Source of the DNA: a bacterium
GTDB lineage: Bacteria > Patescibacteriota > Minisyncoccia > Phycocordibacterales > UBA12088
NCBI GenBank assembly: GCA_003252295.1
Contig: QKEV01000003.1
Location: forward strand, 64,701-128,700
Reading direction: 5' to 3'
Length of the DNA: 64,000 nucleotides
Position 1 is the stretch's first letter; each line of letters starts with the position of its first letter. Below are positions 8,978 to 33,022 of this stretch, in pieces. The notes beneath the pieces were generated by a model. That model was not told the origin of the DNA. It searched no databases and saw only the letters and a list, made by a program, of their open reading frames with translations. The translations under genes were made by a program, and so were the position numbers.

Positions 8978-9466
8978 ATGAAGATTAAACACTACCTCTT
9001 CGCATTGCTTTTTGCGTTCGTGCTTGCACCAGTTGTAGCACAGGTTGCCAATGCAGAAGATGAACTAACTCTTGAGTCATTGAATGACACCATTCAAGAC
9101 CTTCTCGCTAGAGTTGAAACACTTGAAGGAGACCTTGAGGATGCGAATAACAAAATTGCTGATCTCGAAGACGAGCTAGCAAGCATCGATACATCTGCTG
9201 TTGTTGGCGATGATGACGACGATGATGACGACGATGATGATACTTCATATCGTGGTTACAACAAAGCAGCACCAGGAACAGGAAATGTTGCTGTTTGCCA
9301 TAACGGTAAGACGCTACGTGTAAACGTGCGTTCTGCTCTTAACTACAAGAGTAACGGTGCAAAACTTGGTACCTGTGCTTTTGACGACGATAGTAGCAGT
9401 GATGATGGTGACGACGATGATGATGACGACGATGATGATGATGACGATGACACCACTGAAGAGTAG
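8978..9466 (+). CDS. Secreted protein with signal peptide, coiled-coil segment and two poly-Asp tracts flanking a 2-Cys core
   Basis: Signal peptide MKIKHYLFALLFAFVLAPVVAQVANA, heptad-like acidic helix, D11 and D20-like runs encoded by (gat/gac)n, and the central segment VAVCHNGKTLRVNVRSALNYKSNGAKLGTC. Confidence 0.6.
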   Translation: MKIKHYLFALLFAFVLAPVVAQVANAEDELTLESLNDTIQDLLARVETLEGDLEDANNKIADLEDELASIDTSAVVGDDDDDDDDDDDTSYRGYNKAAPGTGNVAVCHNGKTLRVNVRSALNYKSNGAKLGTCAFDDDSSSDDGDDDDDDDDDDDDDDTTEE

Positions 9467-9485
9467 TGTTTAGTTAATCTAAAAG

Positions 9486-9516
9486 AAAAACACCCACACT
9501 GTGGGTGTTTTTCTTT
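9486..9516 (+). terminator. Rho-independent terminator
   Basis: aaaaacacccacac-tgtgggtgttttt hairpin plus T-run downstream of 8978-9466. Confidence 0.7.
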
Positions 9517-9559
9517 TATGGTAAAATAGTACTGTTTATCAGTTAAGCACTAACATGAT

Positions 9560-9946
9560 ATGAAGGGATACATAGTTAACATTGAGAAAGAGACACTAGA
9601 GAACGAGAACTACCGAAAGGTGCTCTACACTACAAAAGATAGTCAGTTGGTACTCATGACCATTCAGCCAGGTGATGAAATAGGTACGGAAGTACACGAA
9701 CTTGCACAGTTTATTCGCATTGAATCTGGTCAAGCGAAGGCTGTACTTGATGGTGTCGAACATGAGCTGGCTGAGGATTGGGCAGTTGTTATTCCTGCTG
9801 GGTGTGAACACAATATTGTGAACATAGGGGATACACCACTTCGTCTCTACTCAATATACTCACCTCCAGAACATAAGGATGGTACTATTCACTCAACAAA
9901 GGCAGATGAGAAGGAAGAGCACTTTGATGGTGTGATCAGTGAGTAG
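9560..9946 (+). CDS. Cupin domain protein
   Basis: Cupin motifs G(x)5HxH-like GTEVHELAQFIRIESG and ...VVIPAGCEHNIVNIGDTPLRLYSIY. Confidence 0.65.
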   Translation: MKGYIVNIEKETLENENYRKVLYTTKDSQLVLMTIQPGDEIGTEVHELAQFIRIESGQAKAVLDGVEHELAEDWAVVIPAGCEHNIVNIGDTPLRLYSIYSPPEHKDGTIHSTKADEKEEHFDGVISE

Positions 9947-9956
9947 TAGTTAAAAT

Positions 9957-9987
9957 AAAAAGCGGTACATGTTGTACCGCTTTTTAT
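9957..9987 (+). terminator. Rho-independent terminator
   Basis: aaaagcggtacatgttgtaccgcttttt. Confidence 0.7.
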
Positions 9988-10712
9988 GTATGTATATGAA
10001 AATAATCACTTTAAACATTGAAAGAAATCTACATCTTGAAAATGTTAAAAAATTTATCGAGTCTGAGAACCCGGATATACTATGTTTACAAGAAGTTATG
10101 GAACCTGCGTTTCATAATTTGTGTGGTACTGAAAAAATGTATGGTTCATTTACCCCCTTTGCTATCCTTAGGGAATGGGGGGAAACTTGTGACAACGAGA
10201 TGATGGGTGTGGCAATACTCACTAGGGAACCACACACACTTCTTGGAACACACTACTACCAAGGATCAAAAGAACACCCGAAGGAATTTATGAAAGACAT
10301 GGAAGTAACCATGACAACAAGGAGGTGCTCGCGTGCAGTACTGGCTGTTGAATACAACGGTACGGTAGTGGCAACAACACACTTCACGTACTCATTGCAA
10401 GGTGTTCCTGATGCAGCATAGGGTGTGTCACTGCAGAGAATGTTAGAGCTCACTAAACCTTACAAAGATCTGGTGTTTTGTGGAGATTTCAATATACCGA
10501 GACCAAACAAGTACTACCAGCAGTTACGTAGTACGTTTACTGATAATGTTCCTGAACAATACTTGTCCTCGATAGATCCAGATTTGCATCACATAAAAGG
10601 TTTACAAAAAATGGTTGACTACATATGGACGAGAGGAGTGTGTAAGGTTACCAATGTACATTTTAAGAATGGTGTTTCTGACCACCTTGCTCTTATTGGA
10701 GAAATTATCTAA
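9969..10712 (+). pseudogene. Endonuclease/exonuclease/phosphatase (EEP) family protein interrupted by an in-frame TAG at 10419-10421
   Basis: The two ORFs 9969-10421 and 10425-10712 are in the same frame. The N-part (ITLNIERN...LCLQEV) and C-part (GDFN...SDH) together form one EEP domain. The only disruption is the single TAG (…VPDAA*GVSLQ…). Confidence 0.6.
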
Positions 10713-13860: not shown

Positions 13861-15423
13861 ATGAGTAAAAAGAAGTTCACTTTTGCTCTTGTTTTTGTCG
13901 TTGCAGTTGTCATTGTATGGATGATGGTGCGACCAAGTAACGGAGCTCCAATGTACGAACCAGCCGTGGTTGAACGTGGTGAGGTGACTCATATGGTTTC
14001 AGTGACAGGTCATGTCGAACCAGTAACGAGGGTGAACCTTGCATTTCCCGTAGGTGGACGCGTCACTGCGTTTCCTGTTGAAGAGGGGACACCAGTACTT
14101 GATGGAACAGTAGTGGGGGTGCTCGATGGTGGTATTTTACAATCATCACTTCGTGAGGCAGAACTAGCAGTTGAGCGAGAGAAGGCGGTACTGCGTGATC
14201 TGACCGCTCCGCTTCGAAGCGAGGAGCGAGCAGTGAAGAGTACAGCGGTTGCAAATGCAGAACTAGCACTTGCACGAGCAGAAGATGCTGCTCGAACAGC
14301 AATAGCAAAGGCATTTGTCTATGCTGATAGTGCAGTGCATGAGGATGCTGACGAACTCTTTGAAAATGATAAGTTTGGCGTAACGTTTACCTACGGTACC
14401 ATTGCGTATCGTTTGCAGGCAGATGCCGCGACTGAGAGTACAATAAATCTAAAAAAGAAGGAGGTGGAAGCGGTTCTTGAAGCACTTGATGGAAGGAGTG
14501 ATAGTACAGCTGCTGATGTTGATATACTGTTGTCACAAACCGATGCAGACTTGGTAGTTGTTGAGGACTTTCTCACCGATCTTGCAAAAGTTGTTAACAG
14601 GTACACGTCAGATGACAGTATCAATCAAACGGTATATGAATCATTTCAAACTGCTGTAGCTTCTGCGCGAACTTCTGTTAATACGGCACGGAGTGAGATT
14701 TCAGCAGCACATACAGCACTGAGTAGTGCGGAATCATCCCTCATGCTTGCGCAGAGTAACCTAGATCTCTCTGAGGCAGGTGCTTCTGAGGATAGTATTG
14801 CTGCCCAACGAGCTTCAGTTGCCAGTGCGATGGCTGCCGTCGGGACGGCAGAGGAACGTGCGAAGGATACTGTTCTCACGGTGCCGTTTGATGGTATTTT
14901 GTCACGTATCAACTTTGAAATAGGAGAGATTGTGAGTGCATATGAACCGGTTGCTGAACTTATAACAGAGGGTGTCTTTGAGGTGGAGGCATACATCCCT
15001 GAGGCGGATATTGCTCGGGTGAAGCTTGGTGATACTGCGAAAGTCACCTTTGATGCGTACGAGCAGAGCGATGTGTTTACTGCAACTGTAGTGCGTATAG
15101 CAGTTTCTGAAACGTACAAAGAGGGTGTACCAACCTATAAGACAACACTGCGTATTGATGATGCTGATCGCGAGAATATAACGCTTCGACCAGGAATGAC
15201 GGCAGACATAGATATACTCACTGACACAAGAGAGGATACACTCTTCATTCCGGTACGAAGCGTCTTGACTGAAAACGGAAGGACCTATGTACGTATCTAC
15301 CAGAATGGTGAGTTTGTTGAGAAGGATATTGAAACGGGCTTACGTGGCTCAGAAGGCACTGTTGAGGTTACTGGTGGTTTAGAGGAGGATGATGAGGTTG
15401 TGCTGTACGTTGAAGAAGAATGA
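13861..15423 (+). CDS. HlyD-family periplasmic adaptor (membrane fusion protein, MacA-like)
   Basis: N-terminal TM, long coiled-coil, then beta-barrel/lipoyl-like motifs (VLTVPFDGILSRINFEIGEIV; TLFIPVRSV). Its stop overlaps the start of the ABC ATPase gene. Confidence 0.75.
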   Translation: MSKKKFTFALVFVVAVVIVWMMVRPSNGAPMYEPAVVERGEVTHMVSVTGHVEPVTRVNLAFPVGGRVTAFPVEEGTPVLDGTVVGVLDGGILQSSLREAELAVEREKAVLRDLTAPLRSEERAVKSTAVANAELALARAEDAARTAIAKAFVYADSAVHEDADELFENDKFGVTFTYGTIAYRLQADAATESTINLKKKEVEAVLEALDGRSDSTAADVDILLSQTDADLVVVEDFLTDLAKVVNRYTSDDSINQTVYESFQTAVASARTSVNTARSEISAAHTALSSAESSLMLAQSNLDLSEAGASEDSIAAQRASVASAMAAVGTAEERAKDTVLTVPFDGILSRINFEIGEIVSAYEPVAELITEGVFEVEAYIPEADIARVKLGDTAKVTFDAYEQSDVFTATVVRIAVSETYKEGVPTYKTTLRIDDADRENITLRPGMTADIDILTDTREDTLFIPVRSVLTENGRTYVRIYQNGEFVEKDIETGLRGSEGTVEVTGGLEEDDEVVLYVEEE

Positions 15424-16100
15424 GTCCGCTCATTGAGGCAATAGACCTTGAGAAAACATACACTGATGGAACACGTGCCCTTCGTGGTGCGAGTTTTGTC
15501 ATTACGGAAGGTGAGTTTGTTGCGATTATGGGGCCTTCAGGTTCTGGGAAGTCGACACTACTCCATATACTTGGTTTTCTCGATCCACAAACTGCTGGTA
15601 CGTACCGCTTTGAAGGAAAGGAGCTGAAAGATTTTCAGCCAAATGAACTTGCGCGGGTCCGAAATGAAGAGCTTGGTTTTGTATTTCAGCAGTTTAACCT
15701 CATGCCTCACCAAACAGTACTTGAAAATATTTACATGCCACTTTACTACTCGAATGTTCCAAAGAAAGAGTGGCACAGGCGAGCAGAAGAGGCAGCAGAG
15801 CGCGTTGGACTCACACATAGAATGGATCATCTTGCGTACACGCTCTCAGGTGGAGAGAAGCAACGTGTTGCCATCGCTCGTGCTCTCATCAATAAACCAA
15901 AACTCATCTTTGCTGATGAACCGACAGGAAATCTTGATAGTAAGTCAGGTGATAGTGTACTCGAGACGTTAAATGGATTGCATAAGGAGGGTCACACTGT
16001 TGTTTTGATAACACACGGTCAGGAGATTGCAGATCATGCTGATCGAATGCTATTCATCAGAGATGGTCGTTTGGAGAGTGATACTACTAAACAAGTATGA
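15420..16100 (+). CDS. ABC transporter ATP-binding protein (MacB/LolD-like)
   Basis: Walker [10 protein letters not shown], signature [15 protein letters not shown], Walker [13 protein letters not shown]. Confidence 0.85.
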
Positions 16101-17341
16101 GGATCATCAACACATTTGAACTAGCGGTACATGGTTTGAAGTCAAAACCCTCTAGAACTTTTTTGACCCTCTTAGGGGTTGCTATTGGTGTTGCTGCAGT
16201 AGTTATCATTGCTTCGCTTGGTGCTGGTACACAGACACTCATTACTGACGAAATAAGTGGACTAGGTGCTGACCTTGTTGCTGTACAACCTGGTGGAGAA
16301 CCGACAAGTATGGCTGACATGGCAAATGTACTCTACTCTGACAGTCTCACACAAGATGACATAGACGCTATTCTGAAAAAGAAGAACGTACCGCATGCTG
16401 TTGATGCAACACCGTTTGTACTCGTTCCTGGTAACGTAACGTACTACAACGAATCATACGTACCGCAAATATACGGTACGGAGGTTGAGGTACTTTCTGA
16501 CATGTTTGATGTGTATGTAGAAGAGGGAGAATTTTTTGGAGAAGGGGAGATAAAAGAAAAAGCAGCGGTTGCGGTTATTGGTTACAAGGTAAACCAGGAA
16601 CTGTTTGGGCAGGTGTCAGGTCTTGGGAAACGTATTTCGATAAATGGTAAGAAGTTTCGAGTAATCGGTATCTATCCAAAAACAGGACAGAAAATGTTTA
16701 CCGACATTGATACACTCGTTATTATTCCATACACAACAGCTCAGACGTACCTAACTGGAGAGGACCACTTTAACGAGATATGGGTACGTATTGATGACTC
16801 AGCAAATGCAAGGCGAACGGAGCAGGATATCGAGTTGACGCTTCGGGAATTACATAACCTCGAAGAGAATGAGGATAATGACTTTGTTATTCGTACCCCA
16901 GAGTCCATTATGGAGCAGGTGAACACAATTTTGCTTTCACTTACGATATTTTTAACAGCAGTAGTTGCGGTCGCGCTCGTGGTAGGAGGTATCGGTATTA
17001 TGAACATGATGCTTGTATCGGTTACCGAACGTACACGTGAAATTGGTTTGAGAAAGGCGATAGGAGCAACTGATACTGATGTGCTCTCACAGTTTCTCAT
17101 AGAGGCAATGCTTCTTACGTTTATGGGAGGTGCTTTTGGTATCGTGAGCGGAGCGCTCATATCGTACGGTGCGGGACTCCTCGTGCTCCATTTCAGTAGT
17201 TTGAACTGGACCTTCCAGCTCCCAGTAGCTGTTTCTGTTGGAGCACTCGTGTTCTCTGTTGTGATAGGGCTCGTGTTTGGACTCTATCCTGCACGAAAAG
17301 CTTCAAAGAAGAGTCCAATGGAAGCACTACGGTACGAGTAG
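16097..17341 (+). CDS. ABC transporter permease (FtsX/MacB-type with periplasmic domain)
   Basis: N-terminal TM, large periplasmic domain, and a C-terminal 3-TM FtsX-like domain (...MLVSVTERTREIGLRKAIGAT...). Overlaps the preceding ATPase gene. Confidence 0.75.
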   Translation: MRIINTFELAVHGLKSKPSRTFLTLLGVAIGVAAVVIIASLGAGTQTLITDEISGLGADLVAVQPGGEPTSMADMANVLYSDSLTQDDIDAILKKKNVPHAVDATPFVLVPGNVTYYNESYVPQIYGTEVEVLSDMFDVYVEEGEFFGEGEIKEKAAVAVIGYKVNQELFGQVSGLGKRISINGKKFRVIGIYPKTGQKMFTDIDTLVIIPYTTAQTYLTGEDHFNEIWVRIDDSANARRTEQDIELTLRELHNLEENEDNDFVIRTPESIMEQVNTILLSLTIFLTAVVAVALVVGGIGIMNMMLVSVTERTREIGLRKAIGATDTDVLSQFLIEAMLLTFMGGAFGIVSGALISYGAGLLVLHFSSLNWTFQLPVAVSVGALVFSVVIGLVFGLYPARKASKKSPMEALRYE

Positions 17342-20534: not shown

Positions 20535-21413
20535 ATGAGTGAAGAAACAGAAAATAGGATCAAGGAGATAGAGTACCTCATGTGTCAGTCAGATTTTTGG
20601 AAGGACTCAGAAAAGGCACAAGGACTCATCAGTGAGTTGCAAGACCTCAAGACACTTGCCGAGGGTGGTACGCCATACGATAAGTTGCGTGCTGTCGTCT
20701 CTATCTATGCTGGAGCAGGAGGTGACGATGCGGAAGACTTTGCTGGTATGCTCTTTCGTATGTACCAGAAATACGCAGAGCGAAAGGGATGGGTATGGCA
20801 TCTCCTGCATGATCATGAGAATGACCACGGTGGTTATCGAAACCTCTCTTTTGAGGTGGAGGCAAAAGGTGCCTATGGTGAACTGCGGCATGAGTATGGG
20901 GTGCATCGTCTCGTGCGCATTTCACCCTTTAACTCAAATGCAAAACGTCATACCAGTTTTGTACTCGTCGAGGTGCTACCGGTTATTGAGAAGAAGCAGT
21001 TAGATATCCCTGAAAGTGACCTCGAAGTATCGTTTGCAAAGTCGAGTGGTCCAGGAGGACAGAATGTGAACAAGCGTGAGACTGCTGTCCGTGTTGTACA
21101 TACACCAACAGGTATTTCAGCATACGTGCATGGTGAGCGCAGTCAGAACGCAAACAGGGAGAAGGCACTCACCATTATAGAAGCAAAGCTGGTACGACGC
21201 CTAGAAGATGAGCACAAGGAAAGACTTGAAGAGCTATCAACCGATCCTGGGAAAATAGAGTGGGGAAGCCAAATACGTTCCTACGTACTCCATCCATACC
21301 AAATGGTAAAGGATCATAGAACAGGTACAGAAACAGCTAAAATAGACGATGTTTTGGAACGAGGAGACCTTGACGTATTCATAGAAAGTGCAAAAAATAT
21401 CGACACACAATAA
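20535..21413 (+). CDS. prfB: Peptide chain release factor 2 (short form, no programmed +1 frameshift site)
   Basis: GGQ motif SGPGGQNVNK, SPF tripeptide RISPFNSNAKRHTSF (RF2-specific), and C-terminal GWGSQIRSYVLHPYQMVKDHRTG. Only 20 nt separate it from the upstream stop, so there is no room for a frameshifted leader. Confidence 0.85.
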   Translation: MSEETENRIKEIEYLMCQSDFWKDSEKAQGLISELQDLKTLAEGGTPYDKLRAVVSIYAGAGGDDAEDFAGMLFRMYQKYAERKGWVWHLLHDHENDHGGYRNLSFEVEAKGAYGELRHEYGVHRLVRISPFNSNAKRHTSFVLVEVLPVIEKKQLDIPESDLEVSFAKSSGPGGQNVNKRETAVRVVHTPTGISAYVHGERSQNANREKALTIIEAKLVRRLEDEHKERLEELSTDPGKIEWGSQIRSYVLHPYQMVKDHRTGTETAKIDDVLERGDLDVFIESAKNIDTQ

Positions 21414-24784: not shown

Positions 24785-24876
24785 TAAAATAATGGCTCAA
24801 TAGAGCCATTATTTTATGGTACCTGTGTGTGAAAAAGTATGTACAAATATGCTACTGTGTGATATAGTATGCACAT

Positions 24877-25881
24877 ATGACATCAAAGTCGATAATCCGC
24901 CGTATGGCGGTGTTTGTTTTTATAGCGGGGACCGCATTCTTTGCCGGTATCTTGTTTTCTGAGGATTCACTGCATTTTGAACCTGCAGTTGCAGATGCGC
25001 AGGAAACTGATGTGGTTGCTGATACTACAACAAATGAAGAACCTTTAACTGCTAGCACTACTGAGCAGAGTGCGACAAGTACAGGAGAGAGTTCTATTCT
25101 TGATTCAACACTTATTGAGGTTTTGAGTACACCAAAACAGGATCTCACAAAACCAGAACTTGATACTGAAAAGGATGAGATACAAACACTCCTTGAGAAA
25201 CGCCAGGTTGAAAAACCAGGATTGTTTACCTTTATTGCCTACTGGGTACAGAAGGCAATAGCGCTTGGTATTCCTGCAAATACTATTGTACTCATTTTCC
25301 TTATACCAGTTATCGCAACACTCATTACTTTCGTGCGAGTGGTCATTGGTTTGCCTGCACTTGAGATGATGGTACCTATCGTACTCTCATTTGCTTTCGT
25401 TGCGGTTGGAATTACTGCAGGACTCATTATTTTGAGTGCAGTCATTTTGGCCTCCTTTGTTTCCCGTACACTCCTGCGCAAAGTGCCTATCATGTACTTC
25501 CCGAAACGTTCTCTCTCACATCTCTTTCTTGCCTTCTTTGTGTTTGGAGCACTTACGATTGCTATCATTCTTGATTTTCAGTCAATTCGTGAACTTTCTA
25601 TCTTCCCAGTACTCATTCTTACCCTCCTGGGTGACTCTATTGTGTCTGTACAGTTGAGGAAGACGGTGCGAGAGACAATTGTTATCACTGCGGTAACACT
25701 CGGTCTTGCGCTCATTGGTTACCTGCTTGCAACAAGTGTTCTCGTGCGTGATCTGGTGATACTTTGGCCTGAACTGATACTTATAACAGTACCTATTAAT
25801 TTCCTTCTTGGACGTTACTTTGGTCTACGACTTTCTGAGGTATTCCGTTTTAGAAGTCTCGAAGCGTATGCCCGTAAGTAA
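24877..25881 (+). CDS. Polytopic (about 7-TM) membrane protein, first gene of the ATP-grasp/protease module
   Basis: N-terminal anchor, acidic/Thr-Ser-rich linker, then about 7 hydrophobic helices. Its stop overlaps the next gene's start by 14 nt. Confidence 0.55.
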   Translation: MTSKSIIRRMAVFVFIAGTAFFAGILFSEDSLHFEPAVADAQETDVVADTTTNEEPLTASTTEQSATSTGESSILDSTLIEVLSTPKQDLTKPELDTEKDEIQTLLEKRQVEKPGLFTFIAYWVQKAIALGIPANTIVLIFLIPVIATLITFVRVVIGLPALEMMVPIVLSFAFVAVGITAGLIILSAVILASFVSRTLLRKVPIMYFPKRSLSHLFLAFFVFGALTIAIILDFQSIRELSIFPVLILTLLGDSIVSVQLRKTVRETIVITAVTLGLALIGYLLATSVLVRDLVILWPELILITVPINFLLGRYFGLRLSEVFRFRSLEAYARK

Positions 25882-27223
25882 ACAAGCACTCGGGATGAAT
25901 GCCCGAAATTATCTCTACATACGCCCGAACAATAAACCTCGGGCAAAGGAACGTGCTGACAGTAAGTTGCTCACGAAAGAGCATTTGGTGAAGAAGAAGA
26001 TACCTACCCCTGAGCTCAAAGAGGTGTTTCGAACACATAGGGATGTTCGTGACTATGACTGGACCAAGCTCAAGGGGAGCTTCGTGTTGAAGCCTGCTCG
26101 TGGATACGGTGGTGGCGGTATACTCGTTGTACGAAACTGGAATGGAGAACAGGGAAGACGACTGGGGAGTAAGCCAATTACAAAAGAAGAGCTTGAAGCA
26201 GAGATATACAGTATTTTGGACGGTGCGTATTCGCTCAACAATCTTCCTGACATTGCTCTAATAGAGAAACGAGTAATTGTGTCTAGCACTATGCGTAAGT
26301 TGAGTAAAAAGGGTGTACCAGATATACGGGTCATTGTGTACAACAAGGTTCCTGTTATGGCAATGCTTCGATTACCAACTAAATACTCGAATGGATGTGC
26401 GAACTTGCACCAAGGAGCCATGGGTGTTGGTATCGACCTGCGCACGGGAATAACCACGAAAGGAGTCCTGTTTGGTTTTGATGAGAAACACATACCAGGT
26501 ACCAAAACAAAAGTGCGAGGTATTAAAATTCCTAAATGGAGCAAGGTGTTGAAGTATGCTGTACAGGCACAGAAGGCGTCACGTCTCGGGTATGCAGGTA
26601 TAGACATTGTATTTGATGAAAAACTTGGCCCATTGGTACTGGAGGTGAATGCTCGTCCGGGACTTCAGATACAGTTAGCGAATGGTGATTCACTTCGTAC
26701 CCGCCTTGAGCGGGTTGAGGGAATGCATATTCCTTCTATTGAGTACGGTATTGATCTCGGCAAACGTTTGTTTGCGGAAAAGTCATTGAGTGATATAAAC
26801 GTGAAGAGTAACGTCCTTAAGGTTCGTGAGCCGGTTGTCATCTATGGTCCAAAAGGGAAGAAGAAGATTACAGCCAAGGTAGACACTGGTGCCTACAGTA
26901 CTTCAATAGATACGGCACTTGTAGAAGAGTTGGGGTTGAAGAAACATCCACGACAGAAGCTTGTTCGTACTGGGTTTGGACCAGAAGAGGTGCGTGATAG
27001 GGTGCATGTTGTATTTCGTCTTCATGGTATGGATATTGAAACCGATGCTTCAATCACCGATCGCTCACACATGCGTTATCCTATGATTATTGGTCGTCGT
27101 AACCTAAAAGGTTTCTTGGTTGATCCCAAGTACACACCAACTGATGAAGAGAAACAAAAACGTTTAGAAAGAAAAAAAATAAAAGAATTAGAAGTTGGTA
27201 AAGAAGAGACAAGTGATGAGTAA
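25868..27223 (+). CDS. Fusion protein: RimK-related ATP-grasp ligase (alpha-L-glutamate ligase-like) N-terminal domain plus retropepsin-like aspartic protease (DTGA) C-terminal domain
   Basis: ATP-grasp features (LKPARGYGGGGILVV; GVGIDLRTG; EVNARPGLQIQ) and a C-terminal ITAKVDTGAYSTSID...MIIGRRNL clan-AA protease signature. Confidence 0.65.
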   Translation: MPVSKQALGMNARNYLYIRPNNKPRAKERADSKLLTKEHLVKKKIPTPELKEVFRTHRDVRDYDWTKLKGSFVLKPARGYGGGGILVVRNWNGEQGRRLGSKPITKEELEAEIYSILDGAYSLNNLPDIALIEKRVIVSSTMRKLSKKGVPDIRVIVYNKVPVMAMLRLPTKYSNGCANLHQGAMGVGIDLRTGITTKGVLFGFDEKHIPGTKTKVRGIKIPKWSKVLKYAVQAQKASRLGYAGIDIVFDEKLGPLVLEVNARPGLQIQLANGDSLRTRLERVEGMHIPSIEYGIDLGKRLFAEKSLSDINVKSNVLKVREPVVIYGPKGKKKITAKVDTGAYSTSIDTALVEELGLKKHPRQKLVRTGFGPEEVRDRVHVVFRLHGMDIETDASITDRSHMRYPMIIGRRNLKGFLVDPKYTPTDEEKQKRLERKKIKELEVGKEETSDE

Positions 27224-28094
27224 AAAAAAGATACGTATAGGAGTTATATCACGAGTGCAGAGTGATACGATTGATTTAGCATTGAAAAAAGAAGCAGAGA
27301 AACGTGGTCATACGTACACAAAAATTGTCTTTTCAACCGAAGATGTTACAGATGCAGAAAATATTTTGACTCAAGCAGGATTGCTTGAGTACGACGTGTT
27401 GTACTACAGAACATCACTTGGATATGTTTGGGCGCAGGTAATTGAGGCGTACTTGTCTAAACACAAAAAAGAAGCTTTAAATTTGCAATACATTACACAT
27501 GCCTTTCTTGAGAAGAAGACATATCAAACAGCAACAGTTTCTAGAGAAAATGTATTAACTCCAAAAACTGTTCTAGATACCTCAAACGATTTTAAAACTA
27601 TTGCATCAAAACTTGGAAGTCCTTTTGTTGTTAAGGCCGATGTGAGTTCCCAGGGTAGAGATGTTCATTTAGTGCATTCGGAAAAAGAGTTTATGACAAC
27701 CTCTTCAAAGAGTCTGAGGAAACCATGTTTTTACCAAGAATACATACCACATGAGTATGATTGTAGGGTACATCTCGTAGGTGGTAAGCCAGTTGCTTCA
27801 TATAGGAGAGTGCCAAACAGTGGTGAGTTTCGAAGTAATGTGAGTCTCGGTGGAAGGATGGAAGCTTTGAGTAATGAAGATAAAAACGCACTCTACCCTT
27901 TAGCAGAGCAGGTTGCTAAAATTCTTAATCTTGATTTGCATGTGGTAGATTTTATGCGTTCAAAAATAACTGGGAAGTACTATTTTACTGAAGTAAATTC
28001 AAATCCAGGTTGGAATAAATGGAATCCAAACGCAACCGGAGTAAATATGAATTCCTTAGTAATGGATTATTTTGAAGCATACGCGAGGGGTTAG
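27216..28094 (+). CDS. RimK-like ATP-grasp ligase (ribosomal protein S6 glutamate ligase family)
   Basis: SPFVVKADVSSQGRDVHLV, CFYQEYIPHEYDCRVHLVGGK, FTEVNSNPGW map to the ATP-grasp B and C subdomains. The start overlaps the previous stop. Confidence 0.7.
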   Translation: MSKKKIRIGVISRVQSDTIDLALKKEAEKRGHTYTKIVFSTEDVTDAENILTQAGLLEYDVLYYRTSLGYVWAQVIEAYLSKHKKEALNLQYITHAFLEKKTYQTATVSRENVLTPKTVLDTSNDFKTIASKLGSPFVVKADVSSQGRDVHLVHSEKEFMTTSSKSLRKPCFYQEYIPHEYDCRVHLVGGKPVASYRRVPNSGEFRSNVSLGGRMEALSNEDKNALYPLAEQVAKILNLDLHVVDFMRSKITGKYYFTEVNSNPGWNKWNPNATGVNMNSLVMDYFEAYARG

Positions 28095-28112
28095 TAGTGA
28101 TACTATTACCAT

Positions 28113-29450
28113 ATGTCTGAAAAATTTCACCAATCCTTTGAAGAAACAAGTGTTGCGCAACAAGAGGTTTTAGATGCCGATTTGTATACTGCTTTTGAAA
28201 AACTGTTTTTTGAGGATTATGAGTACCTTGAAGGAGACAAAAGGGAAAGAGAAAATCAGAAAAAAAGTTTTTTTGAGAATGAGATCGAGAATCCTGTTCT
28301 TGATTACCCCTTACTAGAGAACTTTGATTTTGAAACCAGAGAGAGTGAACTAGTAGCACTTAAAGAAACTGCACTGCAACATAGCGACCCGGTAGTTACT
28401 CAGGTGTACAGGTGGAGGATAAATGAACAAATTGCTCAGTTAAGGATGTTAAGGGCAGCAAAAGAGGGGAACGACAGGCGTTTTGGAAGGTACTCAAGGT
28501 TTATATATGGGACACCTTCTGAAGAAATATTTCAGTATGATCTGAGTAAGGTAAGAGGGGTTGTTGAGGTTGCGCAAAGATCGGGTGATGATGAGAGAAT
28601 AAAGGCGTCAGAATGGCTACTGGAACATGTAGATCTCAATAAGGTTGATACTGCAACAATCAGTGATGGTCTTCTCAAAAAAGAAAAAGATACCACTGAG
28701 AAACTGAATGCAGAGCAAATTCTTGAACTGTTTGAACAAGCAATTGCAACATTGCAACTTACTGACTGGAAGGTTGTTACTGATGAGAACAGAAGAACGG
28801 TGAGTGCAAGCCAAGAGCAAAAAACAGTATATCTGCCAAAAGATATCTCTCGAACAAAACAAAAAGTCGAGTCACTCATTGCGCACGAGTTAGGTACCCA
28901 TGCACAAAGAAGAGAACATGGAGAGAGGAGTAAACTGAGACTCCTTGGTTTGGGTCTAGATAGATACGTGAAAGGTGAGGAAGGGGTTGCAACATATGAG
29001 CAGCATAAGATTGAGGGAGCAGATGAATATGCGGGTTTCTTGGGACATCTTGCTGGGTCACTTGCACATGGCGTTGATGGGACAAAAAGAAATTTCAGGG
29101 ATGTGTTTGAAATATTGTGTCAGTATAATATCGCACGAATAAAAACCTCAACAGGAGAAGATCGGGTAAAAAAGGCAAAAGATGCTAGTTGGAATACATG
29201 CGTAAGAGCTTTCAGAGGTACCACTTGCACTTCTCCAGGTAATGCGTTTACGAAGGATATTGTGTATCGAGAAGGGAATATTGGTGTGTACGACCTCATT
29301 AATGCAAACAGTAATGAGGTGCACCGTTTTATGGTTGGCAAGTATGACCCGACAAATGATAGACATGTGTGGGTACTTGACCAGCTTGGTATTACAGAAG
29401 AAGATATTGAGCGTCTAGAGAAGGGTGAAGAAGTAGCTGACGAAACATAA
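28113..29450 (+). CDS. DUF1704-family (MATCAP-like) zinc metallopeptidase with atypical HExxxH motif
   Basis: IAHELGTHAQRREHGE (H-E-x-x-x-H) and the conserved downstream segment ...GEEGVATYEQHKIEGA.... Adjacent to the RimK-like ligases, as in the described conserved neighbourhoods. Confidence 0.6.
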   Translation: MSEKFHQSFEETSVAQQEVLDADLYTAFEKLFFEDYEYLEGDKRERENQKKSFFENEIENPVLDYPLLENFDFETRESELVALKETALQHSDPVVTQVYRWRINEQIAQLRMLRAAKEGNDRRFGRYSRFIYGTPSEEIFQYDLSKVRGVVEVAQRSGDDERIKASEWLLEHVDLNKVDTATISDGLLKKEKDTTEKLNAEQILELFEQAIATLQLTDWKVVTDENRRTVSASQEQKTVYLPKDISRTKQKVESLIAHELGTHAQRREHGERSKLRLLGLGLDRYVKGEEGVATYEQHKIEGADEYAGFLGHLAGSLAHGVDGTKRNFRDVFEILCQYNIARIKTSTGEDRVKKAKDASWNTCVRAFRGTTCTSPGNAFTKDIVYREGNIGVYDLINANSNEVHRFMVGKYDPTNDRHVWVLDQLGITEEDIERLEKGEEVADET

Positions 29451-29552: not shown

Positions 29553-29623
29553 TGCCCGATCGTCTAATGGTAGGACGTTGGTTTCTGGCACCAAAAATTG
29601 GGGTTCGAATCCCTGTCGGGCAG
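29553..29623 (+). tRNA. tRNA-Gln (anticodon CUG)
   Basis: U1-A72 acceptor (UGCCCGA/UCGGGCA), typical of bacterial tRNA-Gln; anticodon stem TTGGT/ACCAA with loop UUCUGGC; T-loop TTCGAAT; discriminator G. Confidence 0.75.
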
Positions 29624-29700
29624 CACGAGTTTTGAATACGTAAACACTAGTTAGTTTTGAGTACCTGCTACTCACTATCGAACTTTGGTATACTCAGATT

Positions 29701-31345: not shown

Positions 31346-33022
31346 TTGATTTCTTGCTGTATGATGATAAGTAAATTACAAGATAATGTTTGTGATATGT
31401 TTCTTACAAAACGACTTTTAACAGTAACTTGTCTCACCTTGGGTATACTTGTGTACTTCATGAGTTATGTCTTTCTTGCTCATGCATCAGTACAAAGTGA
31501 CACACAAGAGCAAGTGCGTGTCTTTGTACACTTTGACAGTGTTCCAGGGAAAACTGAGCAAGGACTTGTACGTGCATTTGGAGGCAAGGTGACCCATAGT
31601 TACTCTATTATTCCTGCACTTGCAGTTACGATACCTCAACAAGCAATAGAGGGTCTTTCAAAAAACCCTCATGTTACAAGTATTGAACTAGATCATGAAG
31701 TAAAAGCGACAGAGATCTATGACGAAGAGTACTATCGAGGATGGGGAATTGACCACGTACACAGTGGGGTTGCACATGAGCAGAGTATCCTTGGCCAAGG
31801 TGTGAAGGTTGGTGTCATAGATTCTGGTGTTGATAGTGGACATCAAGATCTCGATGTTGTTGGTGGGTATAATTTTTGGAACTACAATGAAAATTATGAA
31901 GATGTGTATGGACACGGTACACATGTAGCAGGGACTATTTGTGCGCTCGATAATGGTTTGGGTGTTGTTGGTGTTTCTCCATTATGTAACCTGTACTCAC
32001 TACGTGTACTCAGTGATGAGGGAAGTGGGTATGAGAGTGACATTATCTATGCGATAGAGTGGGCGTTGGGTGATACCGTTGAGCTTTGGTATGATGGTGA
32101 ATTTTACGGTACGGTAACTGGCGAAAAGCTTGATGTGGTAAATATGAGTATAGGATCACAGTCTGCAAGTAGTGCCTATGAAGAGGCATGTAATGCTGCA
32201 TATGCAAAAGGTTTAGTGCTTGTAGCTGCTGCGGGGAATGATGGTCGTTTCAACGGAAGAGGTGACACAGTAGACTATCCGGCACGGTACAGTTCTGTAA
32301 TAGCGGTAGCTGCTGTTGATCAAAATAATGTACGAGCTACTTGGTCTAGTACTGGTCCGGATGTTGAGATCTCTGCTCCTGGAGTATCAGTAATATCTGC
32401 TTGGAATGATGATTCAAGTCATTATGATCCACAACCTACACTTATTGATGGTGATTACTACAAACCTGGCTCTGGTACATCAATGGCAACACCACATGTA
32501 ACAGGTGCAGTTGCCTTATTGCTTTCAGCGGGTGTGGAAGATATGAACGGAGTAAATGGTGTTGCAGATGAAGTAAGGAGTATTCTTGGTGACAGTGCTA
32601 CTCCACTTGGAAAGGTAGAGGAGTATGGTGCAGGTCTTGTAAATATTCAAGAAGCGCTTCAAATACTTGTGGTTCCCACTGGAAACACTTCTCCGGTAGC
32701 GGATGCTGGAGCAGATCAGGTGCTTGTCGACAGTAACAGTGATGGTACAGAAACATTTACTCTTGATGGTACCGCTTCAACCGATAAAGAGAACAATATC
32801 ATCTCGTATTTGTGGAATGATGAGAATGATGTCGTGGTAGGTACTGCAAGTACTGTCGAGGTAACTAAACCTATTGGTGAGTATTTGTTTACACTTACTG
32901 TTACCGATAGTGAAGGATTATACAGTACTGACACGGTACTCATTGATGTACGTACACTTGAAGAAAAATGCACCCCAGCTTTAGCGCGGAAAGGTTTATG
33001 TGTGTATACAAAGGGAAGATAG
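31346..33022 (+). CDS. Subtilisin-like serine protease (peptidase S8) with N-terminal anchor/propeptide and C-terminal PKD-like domain
   Basis: Catalytic triad motifs GVIDSGVD (Asp), HGTHVAGTI (His), GTSMATPHVTGA (Ser). The C-terminal beta-sandwich segment (DAGADQVLVDSNSDGTETFTLDGTASTD) is PKD-like. Confidence 0.85.
   Translation: MISCCMMISKLQDNVCDMFLTKRLLTVTCLTLGILVYFMSYVFLAHASVQSDTQEQVRVFVHFDSVPGKTEQGLVRAFGGKVTHSYSIIPALAVTIPQQAIEGLSKNPHVTSIELDHEVKATEIYDEEYYRGWGIDHVHSGVAHEQSILGQGVKVGVIDSGVDSGHQDLDVVGGYNFWNYNENYEDVYGHGTHVAGTICALDNGLGVVGVSPLCNLYSLRVLSDEGSGYESDIIYAIEWALGDTVELWYDGEFYGTVTGEKLDVVNMSIGSQSASSAYEEACNAAYAKGLVLVAAAGNDGRFNGRGDTVDYPARYSSVIAVAAVDQNNVRATWSSTGPDVEISAPGVSVISAWNDDSSHYDPQPTLIDGDYYKPGSGTSMATPHVTGAVALLLSAGVEDMNGVNGVADEVRSILGDSATPLGKVEEYGAGLVNIQEALQILVVPTGNTSPVADAGADQVLVDSNSDGTETFTLDGTASTDKENNIISYLWNDENDVVVGTASTVEVTKPIGEYLFTLTVTDSEGLYSTDTVLIDVRTLEEKCTPALARKGLCVYTKGR

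Follow-up and report, generated by a model that had tools for sequence, protein, structure and literature searches.

The locus described here lies in a 64,000-nucleotide stretch of contig QKEV01000003.1 (hereafter the window) from a bacterium of the Patescibacteria, or candidate phyla radiation (CPR), whose best protein matches place it with the Parcubacteria/Paceibacterota type. It comprises four genes, designated g1 to g4, predicted to encode a membrane protein with seven transmembrane (7TM) helices, an ATP-grasp ligase fused to a retropepsin, a second, RimK-like ATP-grasp ligase and a MATCAP/DUF1704-family metallopeptidase (Table 1). The four genes form a compact, co-directional operon. According to a preliminary description of the locus, they all overlapped from start to stop. 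The operon stands, and the junction sequences confirmed the overlap for the first two pairs, of 14 nt between the g2 ATG at 25868 and the g1 stop codon (25879-25881) and of 8 nt between the g3 ATG at 27216 and the g2 stop codon (27221-27223). In contrast, g3 (stop codon at 28092-28094) and g4 (ATG at 28113) do not overlap but are separated by an 18-nt spacer. The start assigned to g2 is backed by its homologues, which begin at the same MxVSK N terminus. Antisense open reading frames (ORFs) within the four genes (e.g., 26053-26607 on the minus strand) were deemed spurious, and all homology lies in the plus-strand frames.

Table 1. Features of the locus (positions in the window)
Feature	Position	Strand	Remarks
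pyrG stop	ends 24784		upstream limit of the unit
14-bp inverted repeat/hairpin	24785-24816		immediately 3' of the pyrG stop codon; terminator-like match and sequence
Promoter-like site (TGTACA, 17-nt spacer, TG-TATAGT)	24840-24868	+	consensus match only
g1, RloB-like membrane protein gene	24877-25881	+	334 aa
g2, ATP-grasp::retropepsin fusion gene	25868-27223	+	451 aa counted from the ATG
Retropepsin domain of g2	~26819-27142	+	residues ~318-425
D-T-G-A of the g2 retropepsin, catalytic	26882-26893	+	D339
I-I-G-R of the g2 retropepsin	27086-27097	+	second clan AA signature; begins at residue 407
g3, RimK-family ATP-grasp ligase gene	27216-28094	+	292 aa
g4, MATCAP/DUF1704-family gene	28113-29450	+	445 aa
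H-E-L-G-T-H of g4, metal-binding/catalytic motif	28884-28901	+	H258, E259, H263
E-E-G of g4	28977-28985	+	E289-E290-G291; putative third metal ligand
tRNA-Gln	29553-29624		downstream limit of the unit

The hairpin behind pyrG is likely a terminator or boundary ahead of the module. The promoter-like site, the sole one before g1, ends 8 nt 5' of its start codon; such sites are not more numerous in the region than expected from shuffled sequence, which makes it weak evidence. No Shine-Dalgarno sequence is visible ahead of g1 (window 24840-24876), and the position of the predicted promoter suggests that the g1 mRNA may be leaderless or near-leaderless.

g1 matched the Pfam model 7TM_transglut (PF14402; 74.1 bits, cut-off 25) over residues 136-328 only (25282-25860). 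Similarly, residues 136-333 aligned with residues 311-507 of Legionella RloB, its 7TM part only, at 24% identity, and the 37.3-bit match to the NCBIfam RloB model NF052267 (cut-off 900) was to the C-terminal 7TM part. The predicted order of elements in g1 is an N-terminal transmembrane (TM) helix, an acidic linker, a short conserved helical segment, the seven TM helices and a C-terminal helix. From hydropathy and the AlphaFold2 (AF2) model (pLDDT 76), the ectodomain linker (residues 32-75) appears disordered, acidic and rich in Thr, Ser and Glu, with a net charge of -15, whereas the C-terminal helix is basic, conserved among homologues (GRYFGLRLxEVFRF) and predicted to be cytoplasmic. A transglutaminase domain is absent from g1 and from all 120 homologues listed, which are about 250 to 360 aa long with PF14402 as their only domain. 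g1 is thus predicted to correspond to the 7TM module of RloB, a short acidic linker standing where RloB has its ectodomain.

The N-terminal part of g2 (residues 13-284; 25904-26719) scored 218.6 bits against Pfam ATPgrasp_ST (PF14397; cut-off 31.4), and residues 8-284 are 42% identical to Legionella RloC over 278 aa. Its score of 265.5 bits against TIGR02291, the RloC model, is below the curated cut-off of 314.2, because the linker and the protease occupy the region where the model has its C-terminal end. All aligned homologues share the Mg/ATP motif D246...E259-x-N261, and the ATP-grasp fold of the AF2 model (pLDDT 88) is nearest to those of RimK, LysX/ArgX and cyanophycin synthetase, all of which extend a carboxylate with amino acids.

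The protease part of g2 matched Asp_protease_2 (PF13650) over residues 330-409 (29.8 bits, cut-off 24.3). PF05618 remained slightly under its cut-off (25.2 versus 27 bits), and the NCBIfam RloA1-3 models gave 18 to 22 bits against cut-offs of 210 to 280. In an alignment of 60 homologues K337, D339, G341, A342 and G409 are invariant, and I407 and R410 nearly so. K337 sits two residues ahead of the catalytic D339 and, together with R376 and R399, which are also invariant, makes up the basic residues around the catalytic Asp. The closest solved relatives of this domain are the RloA structures 9G58/9G59 and 2PMA, in which AK(x)DTGA aligns with the DTGA of g2, and the TDR...YP..IG motifs align as well. 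K337 and R399 also align with a conserved Lys and Arg in the RloA structures. RloA contacts polyglutamate (polyE) through K46, R114 and R137 (PMC12239564), to which we infer that the basic residues of g2 correspond. The domain shares 21% identity with Legionella RloA and 33%, over 220 aa, with the C-terminal half of the RimK::retropepsin fusion of a haloarchaeon. With DTGA, IIGR and a mostly beta domain of about 100 aa (strands across residues 320-408 in the AF2 model), it has the hallmarks of a clan AA retropepsin. g2 is therefore predicted to be an intact RloC-type ATP-grasp ligase that carries an intact RimB/RloA-type retropepsin domain. It has neither a signal peptide nor a TM segment (maximum KD19 1.01), and its net charge is +31.

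Two peculiarities of the g2 C terminus were noted. Residues 426-451 (27143-27220) form a charged helical extension, EEKQKRLERKKIKELEVGKEETSDE, which most homologues do not have. A 74%-identical homologue of 736 aa (P0007) has about 290 additional C-terminal residues, maybe from read-through or a further fusion. We considered it as a fusion of g2 with a second ligase, but the extra ~290 aa have no Pfam match, and it provides no Rosetta-stone evidence.

g3 matched the Pfam RimK model (PF08443) with 79.3 bits. It scored 108.7 bits against the RimK family model TIGR00768, under the cut-off of 143.4, and 44.9 bits against the S6-ligase equivalog PRK10446, whose cut-off is 331; its sequence is thus RimK-like rather than that of a RimK orthologue. 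Its best solved relatives are the Pseudomonas and Escherichia coli RimK proteins (E values of 2e-11 to 4e-9), and it bears the D...E-x-N Mg/ATP motif (E-x-N..PG). By homology and motifs, g3 is predicted to be an intact RimK-family ligase, and it is cytoplasmic by prediction, with no signal peptide, TM or hydrophobic segment.

g4 scored 87.8 bits against the Pfam MATCAP model (PF08014; cut-off 27). H258-E259-x-x-T262-H263 and G288-E289-E290-G291 are invariant in 20 homologues. The metal site of TMCP1/MATCAP likewise consists of an HExxxH motif and an EEG that provides the putative third metal-binding residue (PMC10499314). A profile of the g4 family matched human MATCAP (structures 7Z5G/7Z5H/7Z6S) and placed its HEIGTH opposite the HELGTH of g4; the relationship is remote, with two short conserved blocks only and a profile E value of 4e-4. 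Residues 44-412 also matched TIGR02421, the QEGLA model, with 76.8 bits (cut-off 338.65). The protein has no signal peptide or TM segment, which predicts a cytoplasmic location, and its net charge is -22. It is predicted to be an intact HExxxH/EEG metallopeptidase of the MATCAP family with carboxypeptidase activity. Taken together, the hidden Markov model (HMM) searches bear out the family assignments of the preliminary description for all four genes (PF14402, PF14397 plus PF13650, PF08443 and PF08014 above their cut-offs), and the motifs DTGA, IIGR and HELGTH that it had quoted are present where it had placed them.

We assign the locus to the Rlo/Rim class, in which a glutamate ligase is associated with a retropepsin, as the form that this class takes in Patescibacteria; it is a variant of known systems, not a wholly new one. 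Iyer et al. reportedly predicted in 2009 that ATP-grasp ligases are contextually linked to aspartyl proteases and 7TM/transglutaminase proteins. The view that such neighborhoods are known from computational prediction only, as the preliminary description had it, is outdated. Genetics, crystal structures and in vitro polyglutamate cleavage are available for rloABC and RimK/RimB (PMC12239564, PMC11957791), and the MATCAP/TMCP enzymes have been shown to be deglutamylases (PMC10499314). No publication on the Patescibacteria form was found in the literature searched.

The rloABC system of Pseudomonas aeruginosa and other Gammaproteobacteria was characterized in 2025 by genetics and structures (Lormand et al., PMC12239564). 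Of its three proteins, RloA is secreted and acts as a retropepsin on stretches of 8 or more Glu, RloB joins an inactive transglutaminase to 7 TM helices, and RloC is an ATP-grasp protein of the cytoplasm. Deletion of rloB or rloC suppresses the hypo-osmotic lethality of a triple protease mutant, no polyE protein substrate was found for the system, and 96% of the RloB matches are in Proteobacteria (PMC12239564). We read a canonical rloA-rloB-rloC operon, in which rloB and rloC overlap by 4 nt, from a Legionella adelaidensis plasmid (L175). The window shares with rloABC the ligase family as judged by PF14397, together with a sub-threshold TIGR02291 match, the 7TM module (PF14402), the retropepsin motifs DTGA, TDR and GR, and a membrane protein gene whose stop codon overlaps the start of the ligase gene next to it on the 3' side. 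However, the retropepsin of g2 is fused C-terminally to the ligase and, having no signal peptide, is predicted to be cytoplasmic, whereas RloA is separate and secreted. Unlike RloB, g1 has no inactive transglutaminase ectodomain. The window also adds a second, RimK-like ligase and a MATCAP-family peptidase, its host is a Patescibacterium, and the curated NCBIfam cut-offs for RloB, RloA and TIGR02291 were not reached.

In the Rim system, RimK makes poly-alpha-Glu and glutamylates ribosomal protein S6, while RimB cleaves polyE of at least 5 Glu and stimulates RimK (PMC11957791). A natural RimB-RimK hybrid, RimBK, is proteolytically active (Little et al. 2025, PMC11957791). The likeness to the window lies in the pairing, predicted for the latter, of a cytoplasmic ATP-grasp alpha-L-glutamate ligase with a polyglutamate-cutting retropepsin, in the existence of a ligase-protease hybrid and in g3, which is RimK family by Pfam. 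The order of the domains differs, as the protease of g2 is C-terminal to an RloC-type ligase and that of RimBK is N-terminal to a true RimK. In addition, the locus has no RimA and does have an obligatory 7TM partner. A comparable hybrid was found on a Salinirubellus plasmid (L176, 2143-4666), where a haloarchaeal 449-aa RimK::retropepsin fusion is encoded beside a gene of the succinylglutamate desuccinylase/aspartoacylase family, a family that resembles zinc carboxypeptidases. Ligase, retropepsin and metallopeptidase would here form an independent trio, with a different peptidase fold.

The eukaryotic relatives of g4, MATCAP or TMCP1-TMCP2 (KIAA0895L, KIAA0895), are tubulin carboxypeptidases and demonstrated deglutamylases that shorten polyglutamate chains (PMC10499314). 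g4 and MATCAP (PDB 7Z5G) have in common PF08014, the HExxxH plus EEG metal site, conserved FRG and YxEGN blocks and the pairing with ATP-grasp amino acid ligases, which for MATCAP are the TTL/TTLL enzymes. Unlike MATCAP, g4 has no microtubule-binding regions, and its gene is in an operon with the ligases. The "flavohemoglobin expression-modulating QEGLA motif protein" of Proteobacteria (TIGR02421) belongs to the same superfamily as g4; it differs in its motif, which is EEGVA in g4, and the Vibrio example is 663 aa long and has no linked ligase. As this QEGLA/DUF1704 example stands alone, we rejected MATCAP linkage as a part of the canonical rlo neighborhood. An anti-phage defense system was rejected as well, none of the four proteins having a PADLOC match at an E value of 0.001 or below.

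We surveyed the fusion at the species level, with one genome per species (79 loci), and retrieved g4-type loci by a metagenome scan seeded with the MATCAP subfamily of g4. The fusion was found in Parcubacteria and in Kaiser-, Nomura-, Levy-, Roizman-, Davies- and Curtissbacteria, and nearly all of the 120 best g2 homologues are about 390 to 455 aa long, with 54 to 79% identity. Ligase::retropepsin fusion is therefore the standard architecture across Patescibacteria and not an oddity of this reduced genome, as had been supposed; elsewhere, RimBK and the haloarchaeal hybrids combine the same two kinds of domain. In all 78 species loci with upstream DNA to inspect, which range from Parcubacteria to Microgenomates, the gene immediately 5' of the fusion is the 7TM gene, and the 14-nt g1/g2 overlap recurs in the relatives examined.

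The other genes are less constant. MATCAP-like genes adjoin the pair on the same strand in about 20 of the 79 species loci, with a median gap of 8 nt. They are mostly upstream of the 7TM gene, and a divergent form is directly downstream of the fusion in L064. Two MATCAP subfamilies and this third, divergent one are all found beside the pair with gaps of a few nucleotides; g4 belongs to a Moranbacteria-type subfamily (45 to 69% identity), other than that of the usual pair-linked MATCAP-like genes. About half of the g4-type loci with full flanks begin with the 7TM gene and the fusion, continue with one to three ATP-grasp ligase genes and end with MATCAP, and one metagenome locus (L133) has a four-gene order identical to that of the window. 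Ligases of the g3 type are beside the pair in only 3 of the 79 species loci. g3 orthologues (36 to 50% identity) adjoin it, in differing orientations, in L012, L023 and L077, and the second ligases of other clusters are only 25 to 30% identical to g3. The MATCAP and extra ligase genes thus join the pair in varying order, in part of the Parcubacteria. The linkage expected by the preliminary description is conserved in related genomes, but the fixed four-gene module is not: only the 7TM-fusion pair is a universal unit, and the trimming and ligating enzymes make up a variable shell.

Further genes accompany the pair in some relatives. Eleven species loci of the MATCAP-7TM-fusion type (L001-L005, L088 at 9288-10115, and others) have an ORF of about 250 to 276 aa 3' of the fusion, on the same strand and with a median gap of 4 nt; its product has an N-terminal hydrophobic segment and a weak YHYH Pfam match only, and may belong to the system as an additional component outside the cytoplasm. 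This YHYH-type ORF is absent from the window. On the 288-kb metagenome contig Ga0209318_1000011 (L146, L156) there are two MATCAP paralogues of the g4 subfamily, one linked to a 7TM gene, fusion and ligase and the other solitary.

Such variability raises the question of whether the operon consists of two uncoupled modules placed side by side, 7TM plus fusion and RimK-like ligase plus MATCAP. MATCAP genes of the g4 type are often solitary (L090/L091, L097, L099, L116-L118), the closest relatives of g1 and g2 (75 to 79% identity) have no MATCAP gene nearby, and gene order varies between lineages. However, a chance neighbor within 8 kb is expected in about 1 to 2% of cases for genomes of about 1 Mb, our estimate for this group, as against the roughly half of full-flank MATCAP loci that carry the pair. 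Several MATCAP subfamilies adjoin the pair, upstream or downstream, on the same strand and with gaps of a few nucleotides. Linkage that outlasts changes in order and orientation is a classic sign of functional coupling, which is thus favored over chance, and we consider two uncoupled modules improbable.

The general logic put forward earlier, in which ligases, two unrelated peptidases and a 7TM partner act together, holds, and a writer/eraser system can reasonably be argued. The function that we favor, with about even confidence, is the assembly at the membrane of a peptide chain of alpha-linked acidic residues, probably Glu, the length of which would be set by endo- and exopeptidase trimming. 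g2 would bind g1 on the cytoplasmic side of the membrane, through the conserved, basic helix at the g1 C terminus; we propose this because the 14-nt overlap recurs and the adjacency of the two genes is universal. With ATP, g2 would attach acidic residues, most likely L-Glu, in alpha linkage to a free alpha-carboxylate, and g3 would add a priming step or a further or different residue. The retropepsin domain of g2 would dimerize and cut long acidic chains internally, while g4 would take residues off the C terminus one at a time, so that chain length would reflect the balance of synthesis and trimming. The 7TM protein might tether or regulate the ligase, or pass the product to the envelope. Candidate acceptors are free Glu or a peptide, an envelope precursor, and a protein. 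By analogy with rlo, the physiological role may be in envelope or osmotic homeostasis. An acidic substrate fits the invariant K337, R376 and R399, the nearly invariant R410 and the charge of g2, and all the chemistry would be cytoplasmic, since g2, g3 and g4 have neither signal peptides nor TM segments.

The chain could also be attached to a protein. In that case, the ligases would extend the C terminus of a specific protein, such as S6 or a membrane or envelope protein, and the retropepsin and the MATCAP-like enzyme would remove the extension, as a bacterial counterpart of tubulin tyrosination/glutamylation. RimK, which is the closest solved relative of g3 and a top fold match of g2, glutamylates the C terminus of S6; LysX/ArgX, also among the fold matches of g2, modify the carrier protein LysW at its C-terminal Glu; and MATCAP/TMCP act on protein C termini (PMC10499314). 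The predicted cytoplasmic location of all the enzymes is in keeping with such a role. On the other hand, no candidate substrate gene was found in or beside the operon in any of about 170 loci, rpsF was not found in the 64-kb window with an E. coli S6 sequence as the query, and g3 is far from the S6-ligase cut-off. RloC-type ligases have no demonstrated protein substrate, no polyE protein substrate was found for Rlo (PMC12239564), and a soluble protein substrate would leave the obligatory 7TM partner unexplained. We therefore regard a protein tail as rather unlikely, and an analogue of the tubulin code as possible but not favored. A broader proposal, that MATCAP-type carboxypeptidases and ATP-grasp ligases constitute a reversible protein C-terminal "tail code," set at the membrane by the 7TM partner and a prokaryotic antecedent of the tubulin tyrosination/glutamylation cycle, is more doubtful again. 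Free or exported poly-alpha-glutamate is as compatible with the locus as a protein tail is.

A scan of the window for a linked substrate with an acidic C terminus gave only two proteins, neither of them operon-linked, and the candidates were rejected. The first (8978-9466, plus strand; 162 aa, no Pfam match) has a signal peptide, two poly-Asp runs and the C terminus DDGDDDDDDDDDDDDDDTTEE; this secreted, extremely acidic protein ends in -EE and is encoded 16 kb upstream of the module, with no link shown. The region at 13861-17341 (plus strand) encodes an HlyD-like membrane-fusion protein that ends in ...VLYVEEE, followed by a MacB-type ABC ATPase and permease.

The related clusters were also considered with regard to a different product. 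In L114/L152 (2752-5543 in L114), L162 and L137, the fusion and MATCAP genes flank a tandem array of two to three ATP-grasp ligases (YheCD-like, ATPgrasp_ST-like and RimK-like) that diverge from one another. In L092 (4451-5970), a Moranbacteria-type locus, genes for a GT4 glycosyltransferase and a GNAT acetyltransferase are located between the second ligase and MATCAP, and PBP1 (transglycosylase/transpeptidase), FemAB and Mur ligase genes lie at most 6 kb downstream.

Tandem arrays of two to four divergent ligases would suit the stepwise nonribosomal synthesis of a small hetero- or glycopeptide (an osmolyte, a surface decoration or a secondary metabolite), with one residue added per ligase, the peptidases maturing or recycling the product and the 7TM protein exporting it. 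The GT4 and GNAT genes inserted in Moranbacteria clusters, near PBP, FemAB and Mur ligase genes, point the same way, as does PF14397, which its Pfam entry reportedly connects with cell-surface polysaccharide synthesis. The pathway for the osmolyte N-acetylglutaminylglutamine amide (NAGGN) likewise joins an ATP-grasp enzyme, a GNAT and a peptidase; the match of g3 to the NAGGN synthetase model TIGR03103 is faint (15.9 bits). Against this, RloC, to which the core enzyme is 42% identical, is partnered by proteases that are polyE specific (PMC12239564). An endopeptidase whose relatives need at least 5 to 8 consecutive Glu has no obvious role on a short defined peptide, and most loci, including all those of Microgenomates, have a single ligase. 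We place a small hetero- or glycopeptide just after a protein tail, as likewise unlikely.

RimK-family ligases also add Glu tails to cofactors such as F420, tetrahydromethanopterin or methylofuran, and methylofuran polyglutamate ligases are known (PMC8141765). g3 does have sub-threshold matches to CofF (57.5 bits) and MptN (57.3 bits), but these are far under the curated cut-offs of 300 to 350 bits, and cofactor polyglutamylation would account for neither the 7TM partner nor the endopeptidase. To our knowledge, none of the three cofactors is expected in Patescibacteria, and we consider this role very improbable.

Several points weigh against the favored synthesis of an acidic chain at the membrane. 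Specificity for Glu in the CPR family is deduced from relatives and charge only. The two systems may follow a different logic, since Pseudomonas has a secreted protease and, in RloB, a periplasmic domain, whereas in the window g1 has no such ectodomain and both peptidases are predicted to be cytoplasmic. The NCBIfam cut-offs for RloB, RloC (TIGR02291), RimK (TIGR00768) and QEGLA (TIGR02421) were all missed. Structure comparison gave no informative relative for the 7TM fold, which makes the role of g1 a guess. Many MATCAP genes of the g4 subfamily stand alone, and the presence of up to three divergent extra ligases, sometimes with GT4 and GNAT, fits a hetero- or glycopeptide product better than plain polyglutamate.

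Two other features of the window were noted. A release-factor-like ORF with PCRF and RF-1 matches (20535-21413, plus strand) encodes only 292 aa, and its PCRF match starts at profile position 95; the release-factor-like ORFs of the relatives L006 and L009 are equally short. At 31346-33022 (plus strand), 2 kb downstream of the module, a secreted S8 subtilase is encoded, with a propeptide/inhibitor I9 domain at its N terminus and PKD domains at its C terminus, and no link to the module is evident.

Pseudomonas depends on the Rlo system for the control of its osmotic tolerance, sensitivity to antibiotics, cell shape and biofilm formation. The CPR variant is stripped down and self-contained, with ligase and protease in one polypeptide, no ectodomain and enzymes predicted to be cytoplasmic. 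It therefore offers a compact gene set for reconstitution, from which to learn what RloC-type ligases make. The repeated operon linkage of MATCAP with ATP-grasp ligases provides a concrete functional context for the bacterial DUF1704 proteins, and an evolutionary tie to the eukaryotic pairing of MATCAP with TTL/TTLL enzymes. Finally, that the 7TM-fusion pair has been kept across much of a phylum of very small genomes suggests an important envelope or physiological role.

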